A DNA stretch of 64,000 bases from a virus. Positions 19 through 50,060 of the stretch are shown here, piece by piece. The translations under genes and the position numbers were made by a program. Location of the stretch: the IMG/VR virus record IMGVR_UViG_3300029904_000002, positions 1-64,000 of that record; one strand, written 5' to 3'. The stretch's first letter is position 1. The number at the start of each line of letters is the position of its first letter. A model generated the notes under the pieces. It saw only the letters and a list, made by a program, of their open reading frames with translations, did no database searches and was not told the origin of the DNA.

Positions 19-90
19 TGGGCTATCGCCAAGCGGTAAGGCACAGGACTTTGACTCCTGCATTCGCTGGTTCGAATCCAGCTAGCCCAG
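19..90 (+). tRNA. tRNA-Gln (anticodon TTG)
   Basis: Hand-folded 72-nt cloverleaf: acceptor TGGGCTA/TAGCCCA, anticodon arm CAGGA-CTTTGAC-TCCTG, T-arm GCTGG-TTCGAAT-CCAGC. Confidence 0.85.
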
Positions 91-139
91 CTGATATGTA
101 GAGTAATTCCTCAAATCAATATGATGAACCTCAGTGAAA

Positions 140-152
140 GTATCGTCACTAA
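140..152 (+). promoter_or_regulatory. weak variant of the gAATCGTTAt promoter-like motif (GTATCGTCACTAA)
   Basis: ATCGTCA core as in the 1951 copy; 43 nt upstream of ATG 195; degenerate. Confidence 0.3.
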
Positions 153-194
153 GAAGGTCGAGAAAAGATGTAGTCATTAAGGAGATTGATGTAA

Positions 195-515
195 ATGAAA
201 AGAGTAATAAGAAGCAGTAAAGATCCTGACGTGATCAGAGATCTTACATACACTAAATCAGAATTAGGTGATCAGATACTTCCATATCTCTCAGATGCTG
301 AACATGAATTATCATTAAGGCATAAGATATGCAAGAGTGAGAATACCGTTGAATTTTACGAAGTCATAAAATCTGTAGGAGAAGTATTCTTAGATGATCT
401 AGATATAGATGACGTCAAAGATCACTTACATGATATATGGTACACAAATGAAGGTCTATCTAAATCGGATATCGTTCAAGATATAATAGAATATCTCAGG
501 GTGTCATTATATTAA
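195..515 (+). CDS. hypothetical protein, N-terminus MKRVIRSS
   Basis: ORF track 106 aa; GGAG 10 nt upstream of ATG; N-terminal octapeptide shared with ORFs at 1537 and 39043. Confidence 0.6.
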   Translation: MKRVIRSSKDPDVIRDLTYTKSELGDQILPYLSDAEHELSLRHKICKSENTVEFYEVIKSVGEVFLDDLDIDDVKDHLHDIWYTNEGLSKSDIVQDIIEYLRVSLY

Positions 516-526
516 CTTTTTCACCT

Positions 527-539
527 GCATCGTTAATAT
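527..539 (+). promoter_or_regulatory. gAATCGTTAt promoter-like motif copy (GCATCGTTAATAT)
   Basis: Intergenic, 12 nt after stop of 195..515, 30 nt upstream of small ORF ATG 569. Confidence 0.55.
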
Positions 540-568
540 GATTGTAGATAACATAGAAGGATATTCAC

Positions 569-688
569 ATGTCTCATTCACATAGAAAAATGCATGCATA
601 TGGAGAACGAGATCATGGAGGAAGCTACGTGTTAGATGATTATGAATTCTCTCATAATCATACAACTTCTGCAACTATTCGCAGATGA
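569..688 (+). CDS. small His-rich ORF, 39 aa (MSHSHRKMHAYGERDHGG...)
   Basis: Own translation; below the ORF-track cutoff; preceded by GAAGGA and a motif copy; could be non-coding. Confidence 0.3.
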   Translation: MSHSHRKMHAYGERDHGGSYVLDDYEFSHNHTTSATIRR

Positions 689-750
689 GAGAGAGGCATC
701 TTAAGAAGTATGACAGAAAAGCTTGTAAGAAACTTTGCAAATCAATTTTA

Positions 751-832
751 GCAGATATGGTGGAATGGTAGACACGGCAGACTCAAAATCTGCTGACCTT
801 GAGTCGTAAGAGTTCAAATCTCTTTATCTGCA
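751..832 (+). tRNA. tRNA-Leu (anticodon CAA), type II
   Basis: 82 nt: acceptor GCAGATA/TATCTGC, anticodon arm GCAGA-CTCAAAA-TCTGC, 14-nt variable arm, T-arm AAGAG-TTCAAAT-CTCTT. Confidence 0.85.
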
Positions 833-1020
833 TTACTTCAGCTTAGATGGTTTCTAAATCATGGGTTAGAATCTAAGTTTGAGTACGTAAACTCTGCACT
901 AGAGAACGATAAGTGGGTGCTCCGTTTAGAGTTGTTAGATCGAGTAAAGCAACAACCGTAAGTTTTCCTGTAGCTTACCTAACAAAAACTTGATGACACA
1001 TCGGAAAGACGATGGAGCTC

Positions 1021-1093
1021 GCTGGTGTAGCTCAATTGGCAGAGCAGCTGATTTGTAATCAGCAGGTTAAGAGTTCAAGTCTCTTCATCAGCC
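1021..1093 (+). tRNA. tRNA-Thr (anticodon TGT)
   Basis: 73 nt: acceptor GCTGGTG/CATCAGC, D-arm GCTC-AATTGGCA-GAGC, anticodon arm GCTGA-TTTGTAA-TCAGC, T-arm AAGAG-TTCAAGT-CTCTT. Confidence 0.85.
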
Positions 1094-1416
1094 AGTAGAG
1101 CTAATGGCCCACGTCTTTATAAGACGTCTTAAGGAAGCTTCTGCATTCGATGCAGGCTATGTCAAGAATGCAGCCGAAGGTGACACCGGATACAGTGGCA
1201 CAATCTGCGACATGTCAAGCAGTCACAATAACGGGTATAGCAGATGGCAGAAGGAAAGACTTCCGTAGTCTCGTGTGTAAGATTTCGTTATTGCTAGAGA
1301 TCTGAAGCGAATGGTAGGTTGCAGCCTGTTATAGCAGTAACAGGTGATTAATATGCAATACAAACTGATCACGTTAGAAATCAGGGTTATGGACTTGAGG
1401 CTTGTCCATAATGTAA

Positions 1417-1499
1417 GCGGATATGGCGGAATTGGCATACGCTGAGGACTTAAAATCCTCTGACTTCGAGTCATGTGGGTTCAAGCCCCACTATCCGCA
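1417..1499 (+). tRNA. tRNA-Leu (anticodon TAA), type II
   Basis: 83 nt: acceptor GCGGATA/TATCCGC, anticodon arm GAGGA-CTTAAAA-TCCTC, 14-nt variable arm, T-arm GTGGG-TTCAAGC-CCCAC. Confidence 0.85.
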
Positions 1500-1509
1500 T
1501 CGTTATAGT
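1497..1509 (+). promoter_or_regulatory. gAATCGTTAt promoter-like motif copy (GCATCGTTATAGT)
   Basis: Overlaps the last 3 nt of tRNA-Leu(TAA); 28 nt upstream of ATG 1537. Confidence 0.55.
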
Positions 1510-1536
1510 ATATGACAAAGATAGGAGGTGTATAAG

Positions 1537-1944
1537 ATGAAAAGAGTAATTAGGAGATCAATTCCAATTACAGGAGCTAAAATTCAATCAAAAGGAATCT
1601 TTTGGTACATTCCGGATGATGACAAATTATTAGCGTTTCCATATGATCCTGATCAGTTTCAGAATTCAATTTCTAGGAATGGTTTATCTTATACACACAA
1701 AAAGTTATGGCCTGAAATTTCTGGTAAACTCAAGAAATATCCATACAACTATTTTCCTAGAGGTAGAGTAGAAATTGATAATAAAGGAAGATCTGTAATT
1801 TATATGAATCCTAATATTCCAGATTCAGCTATTTCTGATATCCGATCTGAATTTGGAATAAGAAATGAATCATCTATCATAAAATACGATAGTAGTTCTC
1901 ATTATCTTTGTTATTTAGATGACAGATGGAAAGCTGATAAATAA
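1537..1944 (+). CDS. hypothetical protein, N-terminus MKRVIRRS
   Basis: ORF track 1528..1944; start moved to ATG 1537 (GGAGG at 1524-1528, 8-nt spacer); sits inside the tRNA array. Confidence 0.6.
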   Translation: MKRVIRRSIPITGAKIQSKGIFWYIPDDDKLLAFPYDPDQFQNSISRNGLSYTHKKLWPEISGKLKKYPYNYFPRGRVEIDNKGRSVIYMNPNIPDSAISDIRSEFGIRNESSIIKYDSSSHYLCYLDDRWKADK

Positions 1945-1950
1945 TTCTTA

Positions 1951-1963
1951 GCATCGTCATAAT
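1951..1963 (+). promoter_or_regulatory. promoter-like motif variant (GCATCGTCATAAT)
   Basis: 7 nt after stop of 1537..1944; next downstream gene is tRNA-Leu(TAG) at 2094. Confidence 0.45.
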
Positions 1964-2093
1964 AAGTGTAGAAAATAAATAGGTTGTAACCAAGATAGCT
2001 AGAATGAAATGCGAGTGTACTAGTTATCAAAAAGTTTTATAAAAAGATATTGAGAGATTCGCATACTTTCGATAAATCTTACCTATTTTACTT

Positions 2094-2174
2094 GCCGATG
2101 TGGTGTAAGGGAAGCCACGCTGGTCTTAGGAACCAGTGCCGCAAGGCGTGCAGGTTCGACTCCTGTCATCGGCA
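2094..2174 (+). tRNA. tRNA-Leu (anticodon TAG), type II
   Basis: 81 nt: acceptor GCCGATG/CATCGGC, anticodon arm CTGGT-CTTAGGA-ACCAG, 13-nt variable arm, T-arm GCAGG-TTCGACT-CCTGT. Confidence 0.8.
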
Positions 2175-2202
2175 TCCACATCTTATGATAATTCTACTTT
2201 CT

Positions 2203-2215
2203 GAATCGTTATAAG
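2203..2215 (+). promoter_or_regulatory. gAATCGTTAt promoter-like motif copy (GAATCGTTATAAG)
   Basis: Lies in the loop and 3' arm of a 10-bp inverted repeat CACATCTTAT (2177-2186) / ATAAGATGTG (2211-2220); tRNA-Asn lies downstream. Confidence 0.45.
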
Positions 2216-2450
2216 ATGTGTGAATAAAATATAAAAACTTTAGAAACATATTCAATAGGATTGATTCGGTGGATGTACATAGCTACAAAAGAAGTCGGTC
2301 AATTGAGAAATGTGCTAGTTTATACGATGTGTAACATATCAGCGTCAGTTACCTAGGCTGGTTTACTCGGGACACACATCTTAAGTTCTAGCAAAAAGCT
2401 TTACGCCTTTCAAATATGTATAATGACTGACTTAAAAAGTCAGTCATCAA

Positions 2451-2524
2451 TGCCTCATAGCTCAGAAGAGTAGAGCGCTTGACTGTTAATCAAGATGTCG
2501 CAGGTTCGAGTCCTGCTGAGGCAG
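2451..2524 (+). tRNA. tRNA-Asn (anticodon GTT)
   Basis: 74 nt: acceptor TGCCTCA/TGAGGCA, anticodon arm CTTGA-CTGTTAA-TCAAG, T-arm GCAGG-TTCGAGT-CCTGC; D-loop lacks the usual GG. Confidence 0.8.
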
Positions 2525-2792
2525 TTTGCTTGATAATCAGTTATCAAGCATAGGTACTTAGGTTTTGCCTATCTAAAGCTATAGTAGCCGAAGTGATTAG
2601 TAGGTGCAAAGATAGGTGTCTAATCGGGTTGAAATCTTGTTATTGTACCAAGATTCCGAAGACATAAAGGTACGTACAATATGATTAAGTTATCCTAGTT
2701 TGCTTAATCATTAAAAATAACTAGGTAGTTGCGGATCCTGTACTATCGCTAAATGCCGCTCAAGTTCAATACTAAAAGTTGAACATGATTTA

Positions 2793-2865
2793 GGCGGATT
2801 AGTCAAGTGGTCAAGACGACGCCCTTTCACGGCGTAAGCGCTCGGTTCGAGTCCGGCATCCGTCA
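2793..2865 (+). tRNA. tRNA-Glu (anticodon TTC)
   Basis: 73 nt: acceptor GGCGGAT/ATCCGTC (one G-U), anticodon arm ACGCC-CTTTCAC-GGCGT, T-loop TTCGAGT; one mismatch at the top of the T-stem. Confidence 0.7.
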
Positions 2866-3073
2866 TTTGCTCAAGTAACTGAGCAACTAATCAAATATAA
2901 CCATCTACGGTGTAGGCATATCAGTTACGTCCACGATATGCTGAGGTGTAAGAGGATGAATTGGGAAGATGGTCCGGAGGATGATTAGTTAAACGTTAGT
3001 CACACAATTGCTACTAGTGTGCACAGAGTCATTGAATGCAAACGATGGTAGCACATCGGCCATTGTCTCTGTA

Positions 3074-3142
3074 GGCAGTAGGTGTAAGGCGCACACGTAT
3101 ATCAAGGATATACGAGGGAAGGTTCAATTCCTTCTACTGTCA
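3074..3142 (+). tRNA. atypical 69-nt tRNA, anticodon unresolved
   Basis: Acceptor GGCAGTA/TACTGTC, 3-bp D-stem with loop AAGGCGC, T-arm GAAGG-TTCAATT-CCTTC. The anticodon hairpin GTATAT-CAAGG-ATATAC has only a 5-nt loop; forcing 7 nt gives TCAAGGA with C at position 33. Confidence 0.45.
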
Positions 3143-3364
3143 TCTGATTCTTGTCCGGTAGGTCCGAAGAATCAGGAAATGCGGATAACGTCAGATATGC
3201 AAGTGTCTGCAACGTAAACTTGAAGCATAAGTCTTGCAACTTATGTAGAGGCACGCTAAGTGGTGAGAGGTCAAAGGATCAGCTTATATGCGTAGCAAGT
3301 GATAGTATGCCTAAATCATTGAGTAAGCGACCTAGGAGCTGAAATATGATCAATACTATTGCGT

Positions 3365-3431
3365 ACATGTATAGTGTAGTGGTTAGCACACATAGAGATA
3401 TGTAGGAGTTGTTCGAATCGGCTTGCATGTA
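3365..3431 (+). ncRNA. tRNA-like element or tRNA pseudogene (anticodon loop reduced to a tetraloop)
   Basis: Acceptor ACATGTA/TGCATGT, canonical D-arm GTGT-AGTGGTTA-GCAC, T-arm AGTTG-TTCGAAT-CGGCT; anticodon position is ACATA-GAGA-TATGT; 67 nt. Confidence 0.45.
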
Positions 3432-3583
3432 TTGAGAATATCTATTCCAGATGAAGTCAAACTGGACATTATTGTATCATATGTGATGCATAAACGTGAT
3501 AAAATAGGGATCTAAGGGAGCTCCAACAAACAGCGGTCTATAATGTGATCGACCGTACAAAGTATAGATATTCTCATAATTAA

Positions 3584-3669
3584 GGGAGAGCGGTGATGAT
3601 GGCGGAATCACGGCAGACTGTAAATCTGTTACATTAGAAACGTTGCAGGTTCGACTCCTGCCTCTCTCA
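3584..3669 (+). tRNA. tRNA-Tyr (anticodon GTA), type II
   Basis: 86 nt: acceptor GGGAGAG/CTCTCTC, D-arm GTGA-(11 nt)-TCAC, anticodon arm GCAGA-CTGTAAA-TCTGT, 15-nt variable region, T-arm GCAGG-TTCGACT-CCTGC. Confidence 0.8.
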
Positions 3670-4033
3670 TTGAGGTAATCCTCACATGACGCATTGGGTA
3701 CAAAGTAATGCGTTGAAGGTCTAGACAAAATGTATAGAACATGTAATTATAACATGTTGCAAGGTTTGCAAAACTAGGCAAGTATGCATGTTAATTAAAT
3801 CTAATGGTAGAACCTTTGAAGTGTAAACATGTATTGAAACGTAATATATAAGTGAAAAATAGCTTAATTACGCGAATGTGAATATAGTACTTCATAAAAC
3901 ATAATTGAAATGTCTGATCAACATTCATGCATACGAATTTCAAATGAATAGGATGCATATCAAAACTGCATGGAGTGAAATTCATGTAGCTGTTCTCATA
4001 TAGAGGATATGCATCTGAAATTCTACAATAATT

Positions 4034-4107
4034 GGCTCTGTAGTTCAGTTGGTTAGAACGCTTGCCTGTCACGCAAGAGGTCGTCAGTTCGAATCTGATC
4101 AGAGTCG
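4034..4107 (+). tRNA. tRNA-Asp (anticodon GTC)
   Basis: 74 nt: acceptor GGCTCTG/CAGAGTC, D-arm GTTC-AGTTGGTTA-GAAC, anticodon arm CTTGC-CTGTCAC-GCAAG, T-arm GTCAG-TTCGAAT-CTGAT. Confidence 0.88.
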
Positions 4108-4109
4108 TT

Positions 4110-4195
4110 AGCTGTATAGTATAATGGTAGACGTCTAAAGATATCATTACACTCTATTGTTAAGAGAGATGCAAGTTCGATTCTTGCTGCAGCTG
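4110..4195 (+). ncRNA. tRNA-like element, 86 nt, non-canonical core
   Basis: Acceptor AGCTGTA/TGCAGCT and T-arm GCAAG-TTCGATT-CTTGC are canonical. The D region is weak, about 18 extra nt (4133-4150) follow, and the only anticodon-like hairpin is CTCT-ATTGTTA-AGAG. Confidence 0.4.
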
Positions 4196-4208
4196 GCTCA
4201 GAGATACG

Positions 4209-4275
4209 CCGGATGTTTTAGGGCGCTGGTGTAGGTCACCTTTAGGTGGAAGAGTTCGAATCTCTTAGGGTCCGG
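4209..4275 (+). ncRNA. tRNA-like element (T-arm plus closing helix only)
   Basis: T-arm AAGAG-TTCGAAT-CTCTT; closing helix CCGGAT/GTCCGG, extended by GATACG (4203-4208) / CGTATC (4284-4289); internal hairpin CACC-TTTA-GGTG; no cloverleaf found. Confidence 0.3.
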
Positions 4276-4309
4276 AACGCTAACGTATCTTGTGACAAAC
4301 CTATGACGA

Positions 4310-4384
4310 GGACCATTAGCTCAGTTGGTTAGCAGCATTTGTCTCATAAACAAAAGGTCCTGGGTTCGAGTCCCAGATGGTCCA
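4310..4384 (+). tRNA. tRNA with anticodon CAT (elongator Met or Ile2; not initiator-like)
   Basis: 75 nt: acceptor GGACCAT/ATGGTCC, anticodon arm TTTGT-CTCATAA-ACAAA (no GGG/CCC initiator signature), T-arm CTGGG-TTCGAGT-CCCAG. Confidence 0.8.
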
Positions 4385-41237: not shown

Positions 41238-41993
41238 TCAAATACTTTCGTAAACATCTAAACTATCATGCAATTGTTTGTAAAGATCTGCTTCTGCTCG
41301 AGGTAGCTCTTTCTTCAAGTCATAAAAATCTATTCCAAACATATCCGACATTGCTTGAAGTTTTTTATCATCAAGTTTACATTCATTCTCAATCATTTCA
41401 TGTATCAAAAAATCATGTATAGAATCATAATTATCTGACATATCCCTAAATAGATCAGGCTTAGCAGCTTCAATATAAATCTCGTGTGTTTCAAGATCAG
41501 CAGAGTATAATGATCCAAATATTGCTTTCAAAGAATTCATCTCATCTGCAGTCAATTTAACTATTGGATTTGATAGATCTTCGTATGTAACTTTTGCCCA
41601 ATGCTTATCAAGTTGTTTCGCTACTTTCATACATAAAGAGCGACGAACTGAATACTTAACTTCATCAAGTTCTCGCTCCATAACTTCTGTTATTCTCGGT
41701 TTAAAGAATACGGTAAATGACAAATCGGCTCTATATTTAGGAGTCCAACGATACTTCCACCACATGGTCAACCAAGCATAAATAGCAGTATTAAGTTTAT
41801 CTTCGTACGACACATATTGATTATTCACAAACTTATGCGACGCTACATATCCAAAAAACGCATAATTGAGTTCTAATATCTGATCACGTATATCATGCCG
41901 AGATTGTCGAGCCTCTAACTCCATAGGTAGTTGATCATACAGTTCTATTGTCTTTTGTTTTATTTGTTCGTTCGTCATATACTCTGCCTCCAA
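41238..41993 (-). CDS. sigma-70-family-like factor (phage sigma candidate)
   Basis: 251 aa; ILELNYAFFGYVASHKF....YEDKLNTAIYAWL resembles region 2; C-terminal LDDKKLQAMSDMFGIDFYDLKKEL resembles a region-4 HTH. The gene call is solid; the function is tentative. Confidence 0.5.
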   Translation of the reverse strand: MEAEYMTNEQIKQKTIELYDQLPMELEARQSRHDIRDQILELNYAFFGYVASHKFVNNQYVSYEDKLNTAIYAWLTMWWKYRWTPKYRADLSFTVFFKPRITEVMERELDEVKYSVRRSLCMKVAKQLDKHWAKVTYEDLSNPIVKLTADEMNSLKAIFGSLYSADLETHEIYIEAAKPDLFRDMSDNYDSIHDFLIHEMIENECKLDDKKLQAMSDMFGIDFYDLKKELPRAEADLYKQLHDSLDVYESI

Positions 41994-42295
41994 GTTAACT
42001 CACACATACTACAATTTAATCGTTCAAATATTACATCATACATATATTATATAATATTCAACACAGAAATTATAGATGTTTCGTAAAACTTATATAAAAG
42101 ATTATATGATGAATTAGATCATCAACGTGTGCATCATATGTACATGAACTACATCAAAGATTTCAACTTGATAAATACATGACATTTGTTTAATATCTAG
42201 AAACATCAGTATTCTATTTAGAACTTGGTAAATTCTATAATTATCAATGAATATCTTATATCCAGAAATTTAAAGAAATTAGTTAAAATTAATCA

Positions 42296-42383
42296 ATTGA
42301 ATTTCTGGAGTATTTCATAGATTACCTGATTGATGGTGTGCATAGCAATTATGAACTAGGGAGATTTATGAAATTGAATTTCT
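42296..42383. repeat. 11-mer ATTGAATTTCT x2 (42296, 42373) with a 9/11 copy at 42570
   Basis: Direct repeats in the most AT-rich part of the 1.26-kb non-coding region. Confidence 0.5.
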
Positions 42384-42439
42384 ATGAATTTAATTGTAAT
42401 TCTAAGAAAATTAGCAAATTCAGCGGTTGAGCTCGTGTA

Positions 42440-42449
42440 CGCACGTGCG
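42440..42449. promoter_or_regulatory. GC-rich perfect palindrome CGCACGTGCG (possible operator)
   Basis: Isolated GC-rich island (GTGTACGCACGTGCGCGTAT) in otherwise AT-rich non-coding DNA. Confidence 0.3.
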
Positions 42450-42702
42450 CGTATAGAGATCATAGATCTCAAATAATAACAATCAAAGATTGTAAATATA
42501 ATAAATTATTTTCCTCTTAAAGAAAAATAATTAATACACGAATACTAAAGAATAGAGCGAGGGCGGAAGTTTGAATTTCACAGTGAGTAGCTCACCTAAA
42601 GGTTCGCCTCAAATAAAAACTAGCCATAGCTGGTCACACTCTTTTTATTCTATCCGTTGATATTTCTACTAGTTCGCAGATGTGAATTGATGCTTCATGT
42701 CA

Positions 42703-42715
42703 GAATCGTTAAACA
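42703..42715 (+). promoter_or_regulatory. gAATCGTTAt promoter-like motif copy (GAATCGTTAAACA) with no CDS downstream
   Basis: Orphan copy in the non-coding region, 173 nt upstream of the sigma-A-type promoter. Confidence 0.4.
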
Positions 42716-42875
42716 TAGTTGATAACAACTTCACTCCGGCAATCGAACTTTCGTTTTCAACGGTGTGGTGGTCATGGAAGTTATGTGCAGTACATATGAA
42801 ACGCAGTGAATTCAGTTGAATCTTAGTCGATTAGATGGCAGAAATAAACTTTTTCAAAAAATTTTAAAAATGGTA

Positions 42876-42904
42876 TTGACTTCTCAACAATTCGATGCTA
42901 TAAT
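42876..42904 (+). promoter_or_regulatory. near-consensus sigma-A-type promoter
   Basis: TTGACT, 17 nt spacer, TATAAT, with TG at the extended -10 position (TGCTATAAT). Confidence 0.75.
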
Positions 42905-42969
42905 TTATGATGTAGTCAACGATAGATGGATAAGAAGGTAACCTAGTAGTTAACATCGCGATATAGCGA

Positions 42970-42997
42970 TTGACATGAACGGTGACATTTTTATCAT
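42970..42997 (+). promoter_or_regulatory. second sigma-A-type promoter candidate
   Basis: TTGACA, 16 nt spacer, TATCAT. Confidence 0.45.
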
Positions 42998-43080
42998 CTA
43001 TCAAAAGTTGACTCACACATATTTGATTCTTCTAGATGATCAACTAGGAGACGAGTACAATTGAATATGTTTAGAAGCAT

Positions 43081-43235
43081 GAAGCCGATGAGACTCACCC
43101 CTTCGTCATTTGTTTTATGCTATCTAGTAAGGTGTAGGGCTAAATGCCCTGACCGACATAGGAAAGGGTGAGTCCTATATCTAGATAGTATAAAAGAATT
43201 GACGAAGGGAATCTCATCGGCTTTTTATTTTTTTC
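43081..43235 (+). ncRNA. ~145-nt multi-helix RNA ending in a U-tract (complex terminator, riboregulator or early ncRNA 3' domain)
   Basis: Nested helices 43081-93/43212-24 (13 bp), 43099-108/43200-209 (10 bp), 43117-27/43181-91 (11 bp). These are capped by hairpins AGGGC-TAAAT-GCCCT and ATAGGA-AAGGGTGAG-TCCTAT. Followed by TTTTTATTTTTTT. Confidence 0.6.
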
Positions 43236-43254
43236 ATCTCAGGAGGTACTACAT

Positions 43255-44466
43255 ATGTTTTTTATGAATTATGGTGGTCTGGAAAACACATCAGTCAAGA
43301 TGCTGAAGTATGCAATGGATTTGCAACATGTGGAAGGTACTATGTATGCGAGCACCAAAGAAAAAGTGGAGAAAAGTATTGACAATCTAGAAAAATCTTT
43401 AGAGATCATGAAAGAATTTCTAGAAGCTCATAAGGATGACAATACCAAAGGGGGCGGAAATCGTCGAAATTCTTTCGATTATGACGAACTAGATAAACGA
43501 TATGTTACAAAGGAGGAGTTTAACAAGTTAGATAAAAAAGTTGATGATGTGCTTGATAAACTTGGACAACTATTAGATAGGTCGGTATCTGTAGCATGTG
43601 ATGCTGTTGAAACTGTGAAATCTGCTATAGTTCCTGATGAATATGACCCTAAGTTTGCATCAACGGCTGAATCAAAACCATATATAGACCTTCCTGCTAC
43701 TGCTACTAAATCTGAAAAACATAAGAAAGCAAAGGACCTTCGTAAGCTCATGAGACGTAATCATGAGCTTCTTAACAATGTGCCAGAAGAAATCGGAGCA
43801 GCTACCGGATTTAAAGAGATGGTGGAATGCACGGAGCTCATAAAGCATTGGTTTAATTGCAGATTTCATCCTAGCAACTATCCTTCTAAAGGATTCAATG
43901 CTGATAATATATACAATTACACACAGCAGATAATTGGTGCATATGTATACTATTGGAATCAAGGTGTTGTAGCGAAGAAGAATTTCATTAGTGAGTTCAA
44001 TGCTTGGTGTGATGGAATTAAGTCCGGTAAACCAAATCCATATGTATTACCTTCGATAGTAGCCGATATCAAATATACTCCCGAATGGTTTAAGCAACAC
44101 AGGATGTTCACTGATAGGAATGGAACTGCAGTTGCATTGATGTACGCAATATCTAATGCGATGTCACGCTATAGTGCTAGTTATGAAGAATTTTCTGATT
44201 GTTACCTTAATAGAAATCCGGATAACCGAAAACGTTTAGTAGATCTTATCGACAATGATATTTATGATAATATAGATAATGTGCATGACCAAGATGAATT
44301 CTTCAAATTTATCTGTAATGGTCGTAAGTTCATTAGAAACTTAGAAACATTTAAAAGTGAGGGGCAAAGGTACTTTACTTCAATAGCTGAGATTGGGGAC
44401 CCATCTCAATCTGACGATCGTTATAATATACCAGAGATGTTAGATCAAGAAGTTTGTTTTGCCTAA
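43255..44466 (+). CDS. hypothetical protein (first gene of the replication block)
   Basis: ORF track 403 aa; GGAGG 9 nt upstream. Confidence 0.7.
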   Translation: MFFMNYGGLENTSVKMLKYAMDLQHVEGTMYASTKEKVEKSIDNLEKSLEIMKEFLEAHKDDNTKGGGNRRNSFDYDELDKRYVTKEEFNKLDKKVDDVLDKLGQLLDRSVSVACDAVETVKSAIVPDEYDPKFASTAESKPYIDLPATATKSEKHKKAKDLRKLMRRNHELLNNVPEEIGAATGFKEMVECTELIKHWFNCRFHPSNYPSKGFNADNIYNYTQQIIGAYVYYWNQGVVAKKNFISEFNAWCDGIKSGKPNPYVLPSIVADIKYTPEWFKQHRMFTDRNGTAVALMYAISNAMSRYSASYEEFSDCYLNRNPDNRKRLVDLIDNDIYDNIDNVHDQDEFFKFICNGRKFIRNLETFKSEGQRYFTSIAEIGDPSQSDDRYNIPEMLDQEVCFA

Positions 44467-44480
44467 GGAGGTTATGAACA

Positions 44481-46334
44481 TTGGCAAAATATTACATAAC
44501 AGCTTGTGAGATGTTCTATGCTAACCTTTTTGATGTACAGTGCGTTAGAAAACATCTTGCTAAGATACAGTCTATATGCCCTGAATTTGTACAAGCATAT
44601 ATGGAATCAACATTACCTCACAATAAACGTAGAGATTATGGAGTTACTACCCTCAACTATCTTGTTTACAGTATTGTGAATGGGGATACAATTTCTAAAC
44701 CTGTCAAACTCATACAAGATTGTCCTTATGATGAATCTGAGATGAAGTCATGTTTAGGATCTGCATATGTTACAAGAGACACATTCAATTGGTTCATTGA
44801 TGATGAATCAGCTAAAATTACATCACCTGACGAAAATGTTTCTACAAATGATCAATTAGATTCTGATGCTGATGATATTCCGAGGAAGATTGAACATCAG
44901 AAAACTTCTGCAGTACTTGCTTCTGACGTGAACATTATTTCACAATCATCAGATTCTGTACAGCGAGAATTTACTGGATACAAATCAACTCTTGCAGACA
45001 TTGATTTAGAGTTTAGAAGTTTCCCAATTAGAGACGTGAGTAAGTTGTGGGGAACATGTTATGATGATTGTGGTCGTGAAATGAAAGTCTATTATTCGCA
45101 TCCGATCATACCTACAAAGCAGAATGAAATTACAATAACTACTCCATATGATCAGATTTCTGATATGGATGTGATCAAATTATTCCCAGATCATTTTATA
45201 CGTACTCGACTTGATATCATGTATGAACCTCAAGAAGGATTTACAGTTCATCCTAAACTTGGATTTATCCCCAAGATAACAGGATTTACCGAAGAACAGG
45301 TCATTGACAATATTATCAAGTATCCTCGTTTTTGTCACATATTTCGAATGATAGATGATCCTGATAAGTTTAGAGGTGAAAAACGTATCTCGTTTATCAG
45401 CAGAATTGAAGTCGATGGTGAGTTACTTCGTCTAAAGGAAGCTATTAACACAGTAGAAGATATGAAGAATCTCCCAGATATTAATGTATTTTATTATGAC
45501 TATATAATGAGACGATATCTGCTAGAACGAGATTATCATACAGTTGAACATAAGTATCCTTTAGATGGATATCTCCAACCATTTACCGTATTATTTATGA
45601 CGCCAGAAGAATATGCACAATTTGGATATACAGATGTCTTAGATCTTGCCAAACAGTGTGTGAAACATCGGGTTCAGTTCTATCAAAGCATTCATCCATT
45701 GACTAAGATGAGGTTTGCTTCAGAGCAGGTACCAATTCCTGAGTCTATTGAAAAAAGGGATTGCATATTCGCAGAAACTTGTAATAAAGTCAGATGTGAT
45801 TACACCTGTGGGCAAGATGTCATGTATAATTACATTTGGAAAAAATCTGGTATAAGAAAGATTGAAGGCATATATGATGAATCTAAATTGATTGAGGATT
45901 TCAATATGCTATCAAAATATGCTGGAGACTTAGTGTGCATAGAAACACCAGATGTGATTAAAAAGACATCTGAATACACATACATATATGCTTGTAAACT
46001 TCGAGGTGTGAATGCAAACTTAGTTCATATAAGCTATTCTGCATATATACAGCAAATACGTGATAGCTGGACATATGGAGGTACGGAAGAGCTTGAACAC
46101 TTGCAATTGAGACTGCGAAAATGGACAGTTGCAATCATATCTGGAATTGATTATTGTATGTTCAAAGATTTTGAAGCACAAACACTTCTAAATATCATTG
46201 ATACAAGAAGACTTGCAGGACTTACTACTATCATTTTAACTCGAAGCTTGACAAATATTCATGGTAATAGCATATTTCTAAGTCCTCTCAAAGAACAGCT
46301 CAAGGAGGTACTTGTATATGATAGAATCCATTGA
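44481..46334 (+). CDS. hypothetical protein, possible helicase loader / initiator
   Basis: 617 aa, TTG start 9 nt after GGAGG; overlaps the DnaB-like gene; no Walker A seen; function inferred from position only. Confidence 0.6.
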   Translation: MAKYYITACEMFYANLFDVQCVRKHLAKIQSICPEFVQAYMESTLPHNKRRDYGVTTLNYLVYSIVNGDTISKPVKLIQDCPYDESEMKSCLGSAYVTRDTFNWFIDDESAKITSPDENVSTNDQLDSDADDIPRKIEHQKTSAVLASDVNIISQSSDSVQREFTGYKSTLADIDLEFRSFPIRDVSKLWGTCYDDCGREMKVYYSHPIIPTKQNEITITTPYDQISDMDVIKLFPDHFIRTRLDIMYEPQEGFTVHPKLGFIPKITGFTEEQVIDNIIKYPRFCHIFRMIDDPDKFRGEKRISFISRIEVDGELLRLKEAINTVEDMKNLPDINVFYYDYIMRRYLLERDYHTVEHKYPLDGYLQPFTVLFMTPEEYAQFGYTDVLDLAKQCVKHRVQFYQSIHPLTKMRFASEQVPIPESIEKRDCIFAETCNKVRCDYTCGQDVMYNYIWKKSGIRKIEGIYDESKLIEDFNMLSKYAGDLVCIETPDVIKKTSEYTYIYACKLRGVNANLVHISYSAYIQQIRDSWTYGGTEELEHLQLRLRKWTVAIISGIDYCMFKDFEAQTLLNIIDTRRLAGLTTIILTRSLTNIHGNSIFLSPLKEQLKEVLVYDRIH

Positions 46335-47688
46335 ATTGCAAGTAATTTCTAAAATACTCACATCTCAAGATGAAGATGATGTCAACAAACTTCTGAGTTT
46401 TGATGACACATACTACTCTGTATTCAGACGTCATATACAGTTCATTTTTAATCATAAAGCTCGATATGGTGTAATACCTGATGTATTTACATTTTTAAAT
46501 GAGTTTCAAGATATTGAAACACTAGTAGATGTACAGGAACCTGTTCAATATTTATGCAATCAGCTACGTCTAAATAAGAAGAGAATCATACTTGTTGAAA
46601 CGGTAAATCGCATAAAAGACGCAGACGAATCTCAGATTGATAATGTGTGGGGATACATACGTGCACAAGTAAGTCGTGTAGATGTACTTGAGAATACACA
46701 ACCTATGGATATTGTACATACTACTCAAGAACGATCTGATATGATTCAAGAGTATAATAGACGTCCTAGAATACCGACAGGTATTCCTGAAATTGATGCA
46801 TGTATGTATGGTGGTATGTCAACGGTAGAAGAATTAGTTGTATTAGCAGCTAGGACGAACAGTGGAAAGAGCTGGCTATGTACTAAGATGATGGAATCGG
46901 CTCAACGTCATGGATTTCCTGTATTATATTATTCTCCTGAGATGCAAGCAGCTATGTTAGCAACAAGATTTGATACATGGAGAGCAGGATATGGAAAATT
47001 CAAAAATTCAGATATCTTCAGAGGACAATATAATGAAGAGTATCTCAAGTATCTGAGTAACTTACAAACTGAATCAACTCCAGCTTTCATACTCGAAGAT
47101 AAAGATGTTGAAAATGGAGTTGTGAATGCTACTAAGTTGCAAACATTTATTCATCAACACAAGATACAATTACTCATAATTGACGGCCTATCATACATGG
47201 AAGATGAGCAGCATGCAAGTGCTACTCATGAACAGTATAAGAATATATGTGCATCACTTTTCAAGATGTCAAAAACTGAAGGCTGCGTAGTTGTTATTGC
47301 TATGCAAGCAAATCGAGATACAAAGAAAAACAAATCTGATGAAGATGGAGTTGATCCATTCCCATCGTTATATGAACTTGAAGGATCTGATCATCCAGCT
47401 CGAATAGCTACTCAAGTATTCTCTATTCGTAATGTTTATGATCAAGGTCGTCTTGACATTAGGATGGAGAAATCAAGGAATGCTGCTAATAATAGATCTG
47501 TATTTTCATATCGATGGGATCCAAATAATGGAGAGATGTCATTGCTGGATGATACTACGTCAGATTCTATTTCTAATTCGATTAGTCCAAATGTAACTCC
47601 TGTAGTAGTAACTACTAAGATACATAAAGACGATGATAATGATCTAATCGATGACGACGATGAGTTTGAAGAAGGGATCAAATTCTAA
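46318..47688 (+). CDS. dnaB: DnaB-family replicative helicase
   Basis: ORF track 46312..47688; ATG 46318; Walker A ARTNSGKS; Walker B LLIIDGL. Confidence 0.88.
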   Translation: MIESIELQVISKILTSQDEDDVNKLLSFDDTYYSVFRRHIQFIFNHKARYGVIPDVFTFLNEFQDIETLVDVQEPVQYLCNQLRLNKKRIILVETVNRIKDADESQIDNVWGYIRAQVSRVDVLENTQPMDIVHTTQERSDMIQEYNRRPRIPTGIPEIDACMYGGMSTVEELVVLAARTNSGKSWLCTKMMESAQRHGFPVLYYSPEMQAAMLATRFDTWRAGYGKFKNSDIFRGQYNEEYLKYLSNLQTESTPAFILEDKDVENGVVNATKLQTFIHQHKIQLLIIDGLSYMEDEQHASATHEQYKNICASLFKMSKTEGCVVVIAMQANRDTKKNKSDEDGVDPFPSLYELEGSDHPARIATQVFSIRNVYDQGRLDIRMEKSRNAANNRSVFSYRWDPNNGEMSLLDDTTSDSISNSISPNVTPVVVTTKIHKDDDNDLIDDDDEFEEGIKF

Positions 47689-48677
47689 TGGATGTAGTAG
47701 GATTATTGAACTATATGAGTTCACAAGGTTTGTTGCGATTGAATAAAATAACAGGTGATTACTACAGTGTATATTGCCCGTTTCATAATGGTGGTCAAGA
47801 ACGAAGACCTTCCGCAGGTGTTCTGTTACATGATCAGTACAGAAACGGACAGCATTATCCTGAAGGTATGTTTAATTGTTTCACATGTCATACCGCAGGT
47901 AACATAAATCAGTGGGTATCAAAATTATTAAGTGAACGAGTAGTTTCTGATGATGTAAAGAAATATATACAAGAACAAATAGGCACTCGTGTGAACACAG
48001 AATCTGGTAAGCTATTCTCAGAAGATATTGGGAAAGCTTTGCAAGCAAAATTTGCAATCAATTCTATGCAGAGCATCATTCATAATAATCAAAAATCTTA
48101 TATAGATGAAACTGAGTTAGCTCAATATAGGCTCACTGTTCCGTATATGTATGAACGTAAGTTAACAGATGATCTTATAGAAAAATATGACGTAGGAGTA
48201 GATCTTCATTATATCCCTAAGGGTGGTAATAAAGAAATTCCATGTATAACATTTCCTGTACGAGACAGAACTGGTAAATCGTTATTTATTGTAAGAAGAG
48301 CAATTCCCATAAAGCGATTCTACATGCCTGATGATATACAGAAACCTGTATATGGGTTGTATGAATTACCTAAGAACTGCAAATCAGTTGTAATTGTGGA
48401 AAGCTGTTTCAATGCACTTACGTCTGTCAGATATGGTAGGCCTGCTGTTGCATTGTTAGGTACAGGTACTCCTTATCAAATTGAGCAGTTAAAACGATTA
48501 GGTGTAAGAGAATTCATATTAGGGTTTGATCCGGATGAAGCTGGAGAACGTGCAACTCGTAGACTTAAAAAAGCTCTAAAGTCTGTTGCACTTATTTGGC
48601 AGTTTTCTGGAATTCCTATTGGTAAAGATATAAATGATCTATCGGAAGAAGAATTTAGATCATTAGAAATAATTTGA
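47688..48677 (+). CDS. dnaG: DnaG-type primase (CHC2 zinc finger + Toprim)
   Basis: 329 aa; CPFHNGG..CFTCH; Toprim VVIVESCFNALT and GFDPDEAG; start overlaps the dnaB stop. Confidence 0.88.
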   Translation: MDVVGLLNYMSSQGLLRLNKITGDYYSVYCPFHNGGQERRPSAGVLLHDQYRNGQHYPEGMFNCFTCHTAGNINQWVSKLLSERVVSDDVKKYIQEQIGTRVNTESGKLFSEDIGKALQAKFAINSMQSIIHNNQKSYIDETELAQYRLTVPYMYERKLTDDLIEKYDVGVDLHYIPKGGNKEIPCITFPVRDRTGKSLFIVRRAIPIKRFYMPDDIQKPVYGLYELPKNCKSVVIVESCFNALTSVRYGRPAVALLGTGTPYQIEQLKRLGVREFILGFDPDEAGERATRRLKKALKSVALIWQFSGIPIGKDINDLSEEEFRSLEII

Positions 48678-48691
48678 GGAGGGAATTATAG

Positions 48692-48952
48692 ATGAAATTG
48701 TCAAAAGAAACTAAGTTAGGTCTAATCTATCTCAAAAGAAAGATATTGTCACGTGCATATGATGTACCAATTTCACATGTATCTGAAACATCTGTTGTTA
48801 ATGTTGAAGATATTGAGGACATATTTGATAATATATTGACAGAATCAGAGTTATCAGATAAAGATAGATTTAAACATGAAATGCAAAAAGATATCGAAGA
48901 TCTTTTCAGATCATTAACACCTGAAGAAGTTGCGGCAATGAATAAGCGTTAG
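48692..48952 (+). CDS. hypothetical protein
   Basis: ORF track 86 aa; GGAGGG upstream. Confidence 0.6.
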   Translation: MKLSKETKLGLIYLKRKILSRAYDVPISHVSETSVVNVEDIEDIFDNILTESELSDKDRFKHEMQKDIEDLFRSLTPEEVAAMNKR

Positions 48953-48966
48953 GAGATTATGTAAAT

Positions 48967-49005
48967 TAGGTCATGTATAGCAGATTGTACATGACCTATT
49001 AATTT
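48967..49005 (+). terminator. intrinsic terminator
   Basis: 11-bp stem TAGGTCATGTA/TACATGACCTA, 10-nt loop, T-rich tail. Confidence 0.65.
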
Positions 49006-49018
49006 GTTATATATTTGA

Positions 49019-49034
49019 CCATTAAATACGAATC
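49019..49034. repeat. left copy of inverted repeat (CCATTAAATACGAATC)
   Basis: Reverse complement recurs at 49966-49983 (16/18 match, 14-bp perfect core CATTAAATACGAAT). Confidence 0.5.
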
Positions 49035-49099
49035 TGCAATCAAACATAGATAAAGTAAGCTATTTAGAAACATCACGAAAAATTCTGTATATAAAAGAC

Positions 49100-49372
49100 A
49101 TGAGATACACATTTTCTAATATTGCAGGATATGGATACCAATATGTAGATATTACAGCAGATGTCAACTCGTTTGGAGGATTATCAGATGTATATGCAAT
49201 GACTCCATTTCAAGGAAATCAGCAATCTTGTATGCCTTACTTATATTCAGCTACTTCTGGGTCAGGGCAATGGTTGTATGTGTATAATTCTAGTCAACAC
49301 ACAGTATCAAGTTGTATTGTTATAGTGAGTACTTCTATGTATGAATCGTTATTATATGTGAGAAAGGTGTGA
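49100..49372 (+). CDS. hypothetical protein (no obvious SD)
   Basis: ORF track 90 aa. Confidence 0.4.
   Translation: MRYTFSNIAGYGYQYVDITADVNSFGGLSDVYAMTPFQGNQQSCMPYLYSATSGSGQWLYVYNSSQHTVSSCIVIVSTSMYESLLYVRKV
49343..49355 (+). promoter_or_regulatory. gAATCGTTAt promoter-like motif copy (GAATCGTTATTAT)
   Basis: In the last 30 nt of 49100..49372; 24 nt upstream of ATG 49379. Confidence 0.5.
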
Positions 49373-49378
49373 TATCTC

Positions 49379-49936
49379 ATGAAAATAAGCAAGAATAAGA
49401 GAATATTTGGAACATCTATACCTGAGTCACATATAATAAATGTTGATGTAGATGTGTATTATTATTCAGAAAATGTAGCAGTTAATTCTGCTACAGATTT
49501 AGCAGAAATTCCAGATAACTATGACGAGTACTTTAAACAGAGTCCTGGATTTACAGAATTTGAATCATTTCTTCATACCGCTGTAAATATTCTTAATTTG
49601 AAAAATTGTACTATTAAGAAACAGGAGTGGTCAGATAGAAATAATTCTTTATCCTATTACATATTATTCACAACTCCAGAAAATGATAATGAAATATACA
49701 TGATATTCTTGAGATTATCTGATCATTACATCGACATTAGAGATTCAAAGATTCGTCAGAAATATCAAAAATATGTTGAAAGATTGACCAAGCAATATGT
49801 AGAGGAGTTGAATGATGGGGATACTAAAATATATGTAGAGACACAACAGATTGTTGTAGGGTCTCGTCAAGCACCAACTTATTCTAGAGCTGGTAAGTAC
49901 CTTAATAATCTTATCGATGAGTATATAGAGCAATGA
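49379..49936 (+). CDS. hypothetical protein
   Basis: ORF track 185 aa. Confidence 0.6.
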   Translation: MKISKNKRIFGTSIPESHIINVDVDVYYYSENVAVNSATDLAEIPDNYDEYFKQSPGFTEFESFLHTAVNILNLKNCTIKKQEWSDRNNSLSYYILFTTPENDNEIYMIFLRLSDHYIDIRDSKIRQKYQKYVERLTKQYVEELNDGDTKIYVETQQIVVGSRQAPTYSRAGKYLNNLIDEYIEQ

Positions 49937-49965
49937 CGTAAAAATCATTGCTCTTATTTTTTTTT
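49928..49965 (+). terminator. intrinsic terminator
   Basis: 9-bp stem GAGCAATGA/TCATTGCTC, then TTATTTTTTTTT. Confidence 0.8.
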
Positions 49966-50031: not shown

Positions 50032-50060
50032 TTGACTTCTCATCAAAATCGTTATACAAT
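50032..50060 (+). promoter_or_regulatory. sigma-A-type promoter that contains a copy of the AATCGTTAT motif
   Basis: TTGACT, 17 nt spacer, TACAAT. TTGACTTCTCA.CAA is shared with the 42876 promoter. AAATCGTTATACA (50046-50058) spans the spacer and the -10. Confidence 0.65.

Follow-up and report, generated by a model that had tools for sequence, protein, structure and literature searches.

A structured RNA element that precedes the replication genes of an uncultivated phage was analyzed in a 64-kb stretch of its DNA (IMG/VR record IMGVR_UViG_3300029904_000002, positions 1 to 64,000; hereafter the window), which is part of a large phage genome. The element lies at 43081–43234; all coordinates are those of the window and refer to its + strand unless stated otherwise. 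Comparison with related phages indicates that its fold represents a new structured RNA family, restricted to one clade of ~160-kb gut phages as far as collections show, and that the complementarity between one of its hairpin loops (strand L) and a distant segment of the same RNA (the target, T) is a real, selected pairing. Most likely, judging from the sequence, the element is the 3′ third, or 3′ domain, of a structured leader of ~330 nucleotides (nt) that ends in a predicted terminator before the replication operon. The T-L pairing may serve as a folding intermediate, the role favored here, or as an intermolecular contact.

The element is a rod of three helices (P1, P2 and P3) capped by two hairpins (H1 and H2) and followed by a U-tract. 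The outer helix, P1, has 13 base pairs (bp; 43081–43093/43212–43224). Its 5′ strand, GAAGCCGAUGAGA, is 100% paired in the 11 sequences compared below and contains the invariant core AAGCCGAUGAG, and its 3′ strand, UCUCAUCGGCUUU, runs into the U-tract UUAUUUUUUU (43225–43234), giving an intrinsic-terminator signature at 43212–43234 that is kept in 11/11 versions. Between P1 and P2 is an internal loop in which CUCAC (43094–43098) faces AA (43210–43211). The first 5 nt of the target T, CUCACCC (43094–43100), lie in this loop, and its last 2 nt (3 nt in other sequence classes) also open P2, a helix of 10 bp (43099–43108/43200–43209). A weak segment containing a U.U mismatch and an invariant G.G mismatch (43112/43196) connects P2 to P3 (15 bp, 43113–43127/43181–43195). 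The second rod mismatch (43109–43111/43197–43199) is found one position further along in class A, to which the window belongs (U.U), than in the other classes (C.A). The 5′ strand of the P2–P3 rod spans 29 positions (43099–43127) that are free of indels in every relative; it is 96.1% paired, with five pairs changed on both sides, and its 3′ counterpart (43181–43209) was assigned from the structural alignment. At the far end of the rod, H1 (43134–43152, stem 43135–43140/43146–43151; UAGGGC-UAAAU-GCCCUG) has a loop whose sequence is not conserved and a stem with one A-U to G-C double change. H2 (43158–43178, stem 43158–43163/43173–43178; AUAGGA/UCCUAU) has an invariant stem and presents the loop AAGGGUGAG (43164–43172), in which L occupies 43166–43172.

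The minimum free energy (MFE) of the element is −82.6 kcal/mol, compared with −40.9 ± 3.7 kcal/mol for dinucleotide shuffles (z = −11.3), and its arms form the longest inverted repeat in the window. An earlier, sequence-only reading of this DNA had described an elaborate RNA of stacked helices at this position, more complex than the terminators found elsewhere; the fold agrees with that description, and the other terminator-like sites at 32–52 kb are simple hairpins. The three-way junction that it proposed is ambiguous. Both hairpins pair well across the relatives (H1 94.8%, H2 100%), but RNAfold favors an extended-rod isomer, in which the 5′ arm of H1 pairs with the 3′ arm of H2, over the junction. 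This isomer has two internal loops, and its helices are 100% and 87% paired. Because the H1 and H2 stems share their sequence in most relatives (AUAGGAC/GUCCUAU in classes B, C and D), covariation cannot tell the two isomers apart, and the double change in H1 is the sole change favoring that hairpin over the extended rod.

A covariance model finds one copy of the element in the window, scoring 173 bits on the + strand and 69 bits on the − strand. In addition, ~34 of the 590 paired cells, as counted from the alignment table, are G.U pairs, which are compatible with the + strand only. Together these results fit an RNA that is read from the + strand. The element also closes a 1.26-kb gene-free stretch, between a leftward gene (41238–41993) and the rightward gene starting at 43255, and this partly AT-rich region adjoins the replication module. 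Such a setting would suit a hairpin or cruciform acting in the DNA at a replication origin, or a ColE1-like variant in which the G-rich RNA loop pairs with the C-rich DNA strand, and covariation cannot separate RNA-RNA from RNA-DNA pairing of the same sequences. A DNA-level role nevertheless strikes us as very improbable: the G.U pairs, the strand-asymmetric model score, the promoter-like site upstream and the U-tract all suit a + strand transcript.

The protein of 403 amino acids (aa) encoded directly downstream has 20 relatives in metagenome assemblies (48–98% identity), on contigs of 126–165 kb or fragments of such; their gene order is identical, and those that carry a source label come from the human gut. 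The element is present in every relative contig examined, in 11 distinct versions. No similar DNA was detected in 50,697 GenBank phage records (blastn at distant sensitivity, query 42400–43400), nor did tblastn recover a relative of the 403-aa protein from GenBank phages, to which the DnaB of the window is only ~30% identical. Pattern scans of IMG/VR returned the same two contigs only, the other 29 matches of a 15-mer scan being due to chance, and a scan of JGI metagenomes returned two ENA gut contigs of the same class. GTDB, scanned with one genome per species, yielded no family member; its 23 chance matches lacked a U-tract, were high in GC and shared no motifs. An alignment-based search of the locus added no further members. 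Searching Rfam 15 at the gathering threshold gave tRNAs only, and relaxing the cut-off to E ≤ 10 gave sub-threshold chance matches (MIR7996, 27 bits against a threshold of 119; Clostridiales-2, 21 bits against 58.6); the sequence-only reading had likewise recognized no riboswitch class. The P1 sequence was not found in the literature, a comparison outside of which the csRNA catalogue of Fremin et al. lies.

Because MAFFT misaligned the variable part of the element, a structural alignment of the 11 versions (A4, padded with N) was fixed by hand; passing it back through the alignment tool did not alter it. In this alignment the rod, H1 and H2 are paired in 97.3% of 590 cells, and seven pairs are changed on both sides. 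The covariation score of this nested structure is 0.205, compared with 0.102 for shuffles (0/500 reach it), and sliding the partners by 1–3 columns reduces pairing to 38–49%. P2 varies freely with compensation, and P1, P3 and the H1/H2 stems are almost invariant in sequence. The 29-position spacing between target and junction is the same in all versions, while the P1 side tolerates an extra helix of 7 bp in class C.

The loop strand GGGUGAG (43166–43172) is the exact complement of CUCACCC (43094–43100), as the sequence-only reading had pointed out, and within the 64 kb these 7-mers are found at only these two sites. Other loop targets in the window were ruled out on the same grounds, CTCACCC occurring nowhere else. 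Among the relatives (designated by L-numbers), T and L vary together in five classes. In class A (the window, L037, L046 and L055), T is CUCACCC and L is GGGUGAG. The corresponding pairs are CUCUCGCC and GGCGAGAG in class B (L002, L040, L042 and others), CCCUUCGC and GCGAAGGG in class C1 (L034), CCCACGC and GCGUGGG in classes C2 and C3 (L035 and L036), and CCCUCGC and GCGAGGG in class D (L047). Cognate loops and targets match over 7–8 bp in each class, and most non-cognate combinations over 3–5 bp; the exceptions are combinations of a class A target and the C1 loop and those between L035 and L036, which are closely related. Shuffled loops attain the observed match length in 0.5–5% of trials per sequence. 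On the structural alignment the eight T-L pairs are 94.3% paired, and five of the eight are changed on both sides; their covariation score is 0.66 compared with 0.20 for shuffles (0/500), with slid controls at 27–54% pairing. Covariation in related phages, which the sequence-only reading had suggested looking for, is present across the 11 versions both in the nested helices and in T-L.

These data bear on two other accounts of the element. In one of them it is an ordinary terminator whose stem is unusually long and whose loop complementarity is incidental, and P1 and the U-tract would be sufficient for termination. This account is contradicted by the five covarying T-L classes and by the conservation of junction and rod across phages whose flanking proteins are ~50% identical, and we find it hardly credible. 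The other account takes the ~40-bp imperfect rod as an RNase III processing or stability element, which is cut to split the leader from the mRNA or which shields the 3′ end. The long near-perfect duplex has conserved mismatches (the invariant G.G and the one that shifts by one position), as such an account would have it, and phage early transcripts, for example those of T7 and lambda, are commonly processed at hairpins of this kind. Processing is compatible with the other readings considered here, but it leaves the T-L covariation unexplained, and we judge it to be quite improbable.

The two partnerships of T compete with one another. The last three positions of T (alignment columns 31–33) are the outermost pairs of P2 and covary with columns 142–144 of the 3′ strand; the same columns also covary with loop columns 100–102. 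It follows that both pairings are maintained, yet they cannot be formed simultaneously at those bases. Judging from the geometry, a single molecule could not hold both a T-L helix and the finished rod. T adjoins the base of a 29-bp duplex (~80 Å) and L is carried on a 6-bp hairpin at the opposite end, and the chain would be too short for the contact because the connection from L to the 3′ strand is only 8 nt long. With P2 melted, a pseudoknot in cis becomes feasible, yet it lies 10–33 kcal/mol above the rod, even without a pseudoknot penalty. A static pseudoknot was ruled out on both counts, the 29-bp rod between the partners and this cost, and an equilibrium switch in cis was ruled out on energy unless a strong external partner is involved. 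The sequence-only reading had offered a pseudoknot, an alternative conformer or a kissing contact as roles for the complementarity; the pairing is indeed selected, but the first of these roles, as a static structure, falls away.

The exposure of T in the mature rod differs from class to class. An open internal loop holds five bases of T in classes A and B. Most of the segment is paired in C1, C2 and D, where its partner is an imperfect, purine-rich part of the 3′ strand, and in C3 it lies within a G-C-rich helix, so that T is buried in four of the six versions examined. The placement of CTCACCC in an internal loop by the sequence-only reading is therefore accurate for two of the five classes, but elsewhere the segment is largely base-paired in the rod. 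According to the folding models, T is accessible across all classes only while the chain is nascent and its 3′ strand has yet to be made, and L precedes the 3′ strand in all versions. When the chain was folded truncated after H2, the MFE structure contained T-L in three of the six versions (A, B and C1).

T and L need not meet within one molecule. The H2 loop might instead pair with the T of another molecule and thereby link copies of an abundant early RNA into dimers, rings or chains; in a variant of this idea, finished RNAs would pair with nascent leaders, and the five classes would constitute orthogonal specificities. The impossibility of T-L in cis in the finished fold is in line with such kissing, as is the form of the H2 loop, which begins with two unpaired purines (AA; AG in L036) and has its 7–8 pairing bases adjoining the 3′ arm in the manner of a kissing loop. 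The duplex energies of T-L are −11 to −14 kcal/mol. The fixed spacing between target and junction, alongside a P1 side that accepts a 7-bp insertion, points the same way, as does the invariant UGAUCA palindrome in the loop of a leader hairpin (HP-II, below). Moreover, loop-to-internal-loop pairs that were found by covariation in pRNA, ROOL and GOLLD proved to be intermolecular (PMC5066667, PMC12286853).

The behavior of the classes can also be read in favor of kissing: they are largely orthogonal, phages of classes B and D occur together in one sample, and classes are swapped as cassettes. The leader and downstream gene of the window are nearest to those of L034–L036 (96% and 85–87% nt identity), with which its element shares only 76% identity. 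On the other hand, it shares 97% identity with the elements of L037, L046 and L055, for which the flanks show 74–78% and 69–71% identity. By these comparisons the T-L module behaves as an exchangeable cassette, independent of the flanking genes, and since the leader is unchanged where the cassette has been swapped, there is no sign of class-specific pairing between the leader and the interior of the 3′ domain. Against kissing, T is open only in classes A and B, and elsewhere the cost and the gain of invading a mature molecule would roughly cancel. This reading gives no role to the P2 overlap of T, which covaries on both sides, and P2 is as variable as T-L, so class diversity need not mean selection for specificity. 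In our estimation an intermolecular contact is unlikely, though it is the strongest of the rivals. A stronger form of the idea, in which T-L is a recognition code and the terminated RNA self-assembles or docks on nascent leaders of its own class only, seems less probable still. If it were true, the five orthogonal classes, exchanged between phages as 130-nt cassettes, would allow co-infecting relatives to distinguish replication-control RNA of their own from that of a competitor, amounting to an RNA-only incompatibility system in lytic phages.

The sequence upstream of the element resembles a promoter followed by a folded leader. At 42876–42904 is a promoter-like site (TTGACT, a 17-nt spacer and TG-n-TATAAT, here TGcTATAAT, with an A/T-rich stretch before it) whose hexamers and TG are kept in all relatives. 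It is the best sigma-70-type match in the 32–52 kb interval (11/12 plus TG), lies 170 nt upstream of P1 and would be expected to start transcription near 42910–42912. Consensus scans over this interval found no separate sigma-70-type promoter for the replication operon; no promoter-like site was seen between the U-tract and the Shine-Dalgarno (SD) sequence of the first operon gene, nor on the minus strand at 42900–43300. By these signatures, the operon (43255–49936) would be reachable only via read-through of the element. A second strong sigma-70-like match (TTGACA, 16 nt, TATCAT; 42970–42997) falls inside a leader hairpin and is partly kept in other lineages; it could be a tandem promoter with a start near 43004.

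The 170–200 nt from promoter to P1 are conserved and structured, with a whole-leader MFE z of −12.3. An RNAalifold consensus of 13 sequences places a hairpin, HP-I, at 42912–43016. Its base helices, GUAGUCAAC-GAUAGAU/AUCUAUC-AAAA-GUUGACU (GUAGUCAACGAUAGAU/AUCUAUCAAAAGUUGACU), are invariant, and its apex is wholly different between lineages. Three copies of the motif TTGACT are found in this region: the promoter −35, an inverted copy at 42916–42922 and one at 43008–43013. The consensus also defines a second leader domain (43017–43070), in which the helix ACAUAUUUGAU/AUUGAAUAUGU encloses the hairpin HP-II (43028–43035/43044–43051). The HP-II stem has two compensatory pairs (C-G to U-A; U-A to C-G) in L034 and L035, and its U.G pairs fit the + strand. 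Its 8-nt loop, AUGAUCAA (43036–43043), is nearly invariant and centers on the 6-nt palindrome UGAUCA flanked by A's; such a loop is built like a self-complementary dimerization loop and at the DNA level is a GATC/BclI site. The linker that follows (43051–43080) is almost invariant. A promoter motif in this linker (GAGTACAATTGAATATG) was rejected, its other matches resembling contexts of a ribosome-binding site and ATG. A leader peptide was excluded because the candidate open reading frame (36 codons, 43061–43171) is not conserved, being stopped after four codons in class B relatives.

At the end of this leader, P1 supplies a stable G+C-containing stem (~ −20 kcal/mol) followed by the U run UUUUUAUUUUUUU, as in intrinsic terminators. 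The stem encloses 118 nt rather than the 3–8 nt of a short-loop terminator, and for this reason a terminator consensus scan misses the element. Only 20 nt separate the U-tract from the first replication gene. The sequence-only reading had placed a terminator-like helix and U-tract directly before replication genes, and it was right to do so: DnaB, primase and family A polymerase (PolA) genes lie downstream with no separate promoter found.

With the promoter, a long structured leader, the terminator and the operon in this classic order, and no other promoter found by consensus scans, the element occupies the position of an attenuator, and a protein or ligand bound to the junction or leader might choose between termination and read-through. 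P1, P3, the H1/H2 stems and the 43051–43080 linker are also sequence-invariant beyond what pairing needs, as for a protein-binding site, and this invariance spans phages with flanking proteins only ~50% identical. However, no antiterminator pairing is available to either P1 strand: their best alternative partners reach −4 to −12 kcal/mol compared with ~ −20 kcal/mol for P1, and no single one is found consistently among the relatives. Rfam offered no matching riboswitch or leader family, even at E ≤ 10, the cassette class does not track the neighboring protein, and the 403-aa protein downstream has no recognizable fold or domain. Control of this kind, which was the main proposal of the sequence-only reading, seems improbable to us. 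Its ligand-sensing version would call for a competing antiterminator, and it is not supported, no alternative partner for the P1 strands being better than −6 to −12 kcal/mol.

The explanation we favor, tentatively and at somewhat below even odds, is a leader-terminator gate in which T-L is a programmed co-transcriptional intermediate. A gate is proposed because the replication operon has no promoter found of its own. Transcription from the 42876–42904 promoter would pass two leader domains and then the rod and junction, after which P1 and the U-tract would form an intrinsic terminator just before the first replication gene. Transcripts that stop there would yield a stable, rod-shaped small RNA, and those that read through would supply the replication genes. 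T-L would be expected to form first in the nascent chain because L is made ~30–40 nt ahead of the competing 3′ strand. That strand would then zip up the rod from the junction outward and displace L, with the 2–3 shared nucleotides as the point of strand exchange. A closed T-L would constrain the 5′ strand as a loop around which the 3′ strand, still bound to RNA polymerase, could wind for no more than about a turn; closure of the rod might thereby be delayed, helping to set the fraction of polymerases that read through. This effect on rod closure and read-through is a topological argument in which we have low confidence. A folding intermediate is preferred for T-L because the nascent chain would expose T in all classes, a pattern matching that of hok-type mRNAs.

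Several points weigh against this explanation. An effect of T-L on termination is not compelling because P1 can nucleate anyway, neither of its strands being sequestered, and this doubtful step is the weakest of the scheme. Termination, read-through and the start of transcription are themselves read from consensus signatures. The MFE structures of the truncated chain lack T-L in C2, C3 and D. Furthermore, a transient pairing in cis gives no obvious reason for five divergent classes or for cassette exchange alongside invariant P1, P3 and H1/H2 stems. Finally, the covariation comes from 11 sequences in five classes, which represent few independent events, and from an alignment fitted by hand.

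The replication module downstream encodes two proteins without a known fold, a DnaB-type helicase, a primase, PolA and a clamp-like protein. Its first gene (43255–44466) begins with an ATG at 43255 behind the SD sequence AGGAGG (43241–43246), as read from the sequence, with the same synteny in all relatives. In several public assemblies (e.g. L040, L044 and L047) this gene has been called 13–18 codons too long, with products of 416–421 aa, and the overlong calls begin at an ATG within the RNA element. The first two operon genes span 43255–46334 and encode proteins of 403 and 617 aa. For the 403-aa protein, no Pfam or PHROG family and no PDB sequence match was found; its AlphaFold2 model is all-helical with a pLDDT (predicted local distance difference test score) of 67, and the modeled fold had no match in PDB or BFVD. 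Pfam, PHROG and PDB likewise contain no relative of the 617-aa protein. The next terminator-like site on the + strand after the element is a simple terminator at 49927–49954. Just past it is a promoter-like site (50032–50060) with the same −35 context, TTGACTTCTCA, as the site at 42876.

The gene-free stretch upstream of the promoter has features of its own. Positions 42000–42400 are AT-rich, with a GC content of 0.24. At 42420–42560 there is a GC-rich near-palindrome, ACGCACGTGCGCGT, and then three successive hairpins, which differ among relatives by compensatory changes that are Watson-Crick only (GAGAUC-AUA-GAUCUC versus GUGUAUC-AUA-GAUACAC; CAAUC-AAA-GAUUG versus UAAUC-AUA-GAUUA; AAUUAUUUUC...GAAAAAUAAUU). 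This region could be a replication origin or another RNA. More conserved blocks occur at 42590–42800, namely AGCUCACCUAAAGGUUCGC, a GCCCACC-ACAAG-GGUGGGC hairpin in relatives, and ACUCCGGCA...GGUGGUC. The sequence-only reading had also linked the T-L complementarity to a hairpin at 42583–42596 that contains CTCACC and GGTGAG. This link does not hold, as AGCUCACCUAAAGGUUCGC is unchanged where the loop class has changed, the 5′ arm is not conserved, and the hairpin lies upstream of the promoter. Elsewhere in the window, nine tRNA genes are clustered at its start (19–4384), 39 kb away from the element, and an NAD ligase is encoded. The endolysin of the phage combines amidase and LysM parts, which indicates a Gram-positive host.

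The element is a well-supported structured RNA family of uncultivated ~160-kb gut phages that is placed to affect the expression of a whole replication module. Uncommon features are that one segment has two partners maintained by covariation and that the pairing module exists in several versions that recombine independently of their flanks. If T-L is a folding intermediate, it would be a rare natural case from outside toxin mRNAs and riboswitches, and one that forms part of a terminator stem. An intermolecular T-L would instead make the element a second pRNA-like self-associating phage RNA, and its orthogonal 7–8-bp kissing pairs could be of use in RNA nanotechnology. The element is small (155 nt) and directly testable in vitro.

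Among known systems, the element resembles intrinsic terminators in that the base of its stem is G+C-rich (GCC/GGC) and leads directly into a U-tract, to which an A-rich sequence upstream is complementary, but its 'loop' is a conserved folded domain of 118 nt instead of 3–8 nt. Structured leaders upstream of replication genes are also found in plasmids, as in the rep leader attenuators of pT181, pIP501 and pAMbeta1 and the repZ pseudoknot of IncB/IncI plasmids. These share with the element a terminator or a long-range loop pairing before replication genes and an RNA-RNA specificity that can diversify. Systems of the pT181 type, however, need a counter-transcript from the opposite strand and a choice between preemptor and terminator, whereas no minus-strand promoter-like site and no alternative partner for a terminator arm were found here.

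ROOL, GOLLD and OLE are likewise structured RNAs of phages or prophages, and in ROOL and GOLLD, loop-to-junction pairs that were first seen as covariation are intermolecular bridges in RNA-only assemblies (PMC12286853). They are much longer (500–800+ nt) and often lie by tRNA islands, whereas the transcript predicted for the element is ~330 nt and the tRNA cluster is far off; the Rfam models of the three did not match the element. The phi29 pRNA is closer in layout, being a phage RNA with a closing helix, a three-way junction and a hairpin loop complementary to a distant internal loop, and related phages differ in its loop pair, which remains complementary throughout and is unable to form inside a single molecule (PMC5066667). 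The pRNA pairing is 2–4 bp, however, compared with 7–8 bp here, and T lies in an open internal loop in classes A and B alone. Moreover, pRNA is prohead-bound and comes from ~20-kb protein-primed podoviruses, whereas the element ends in a terminator and belongs to phages of ~160 kb whose contigs (126–165 kb) encode DnaB, primase and PolA and are unlike protein-primed phi29-like genomes. No match of Phage_pRNA to the element was obtained in Rfam at E ≤ 10.

Finally, the element can be compared with hok and other type I toxin mRNAs, for which PMC6733600 (citing Gultyaev et al. 1997 and Nagel et al. 1999) reports that coupled covariations marked a conserved folding pathway with metastable hairpins. 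The element has no sequence or family relation to toxin mRNAs, and the intermediates of hok mask the SD sequence or start codon, whereas here the leader ends in a terminator and no SD sequence is involved. What they have in common is a segment with two covarying and mutually exclusive partners, the earlier of which is replaced in hok, and would be replaced here, by a far more stable fold (PMC6733600).

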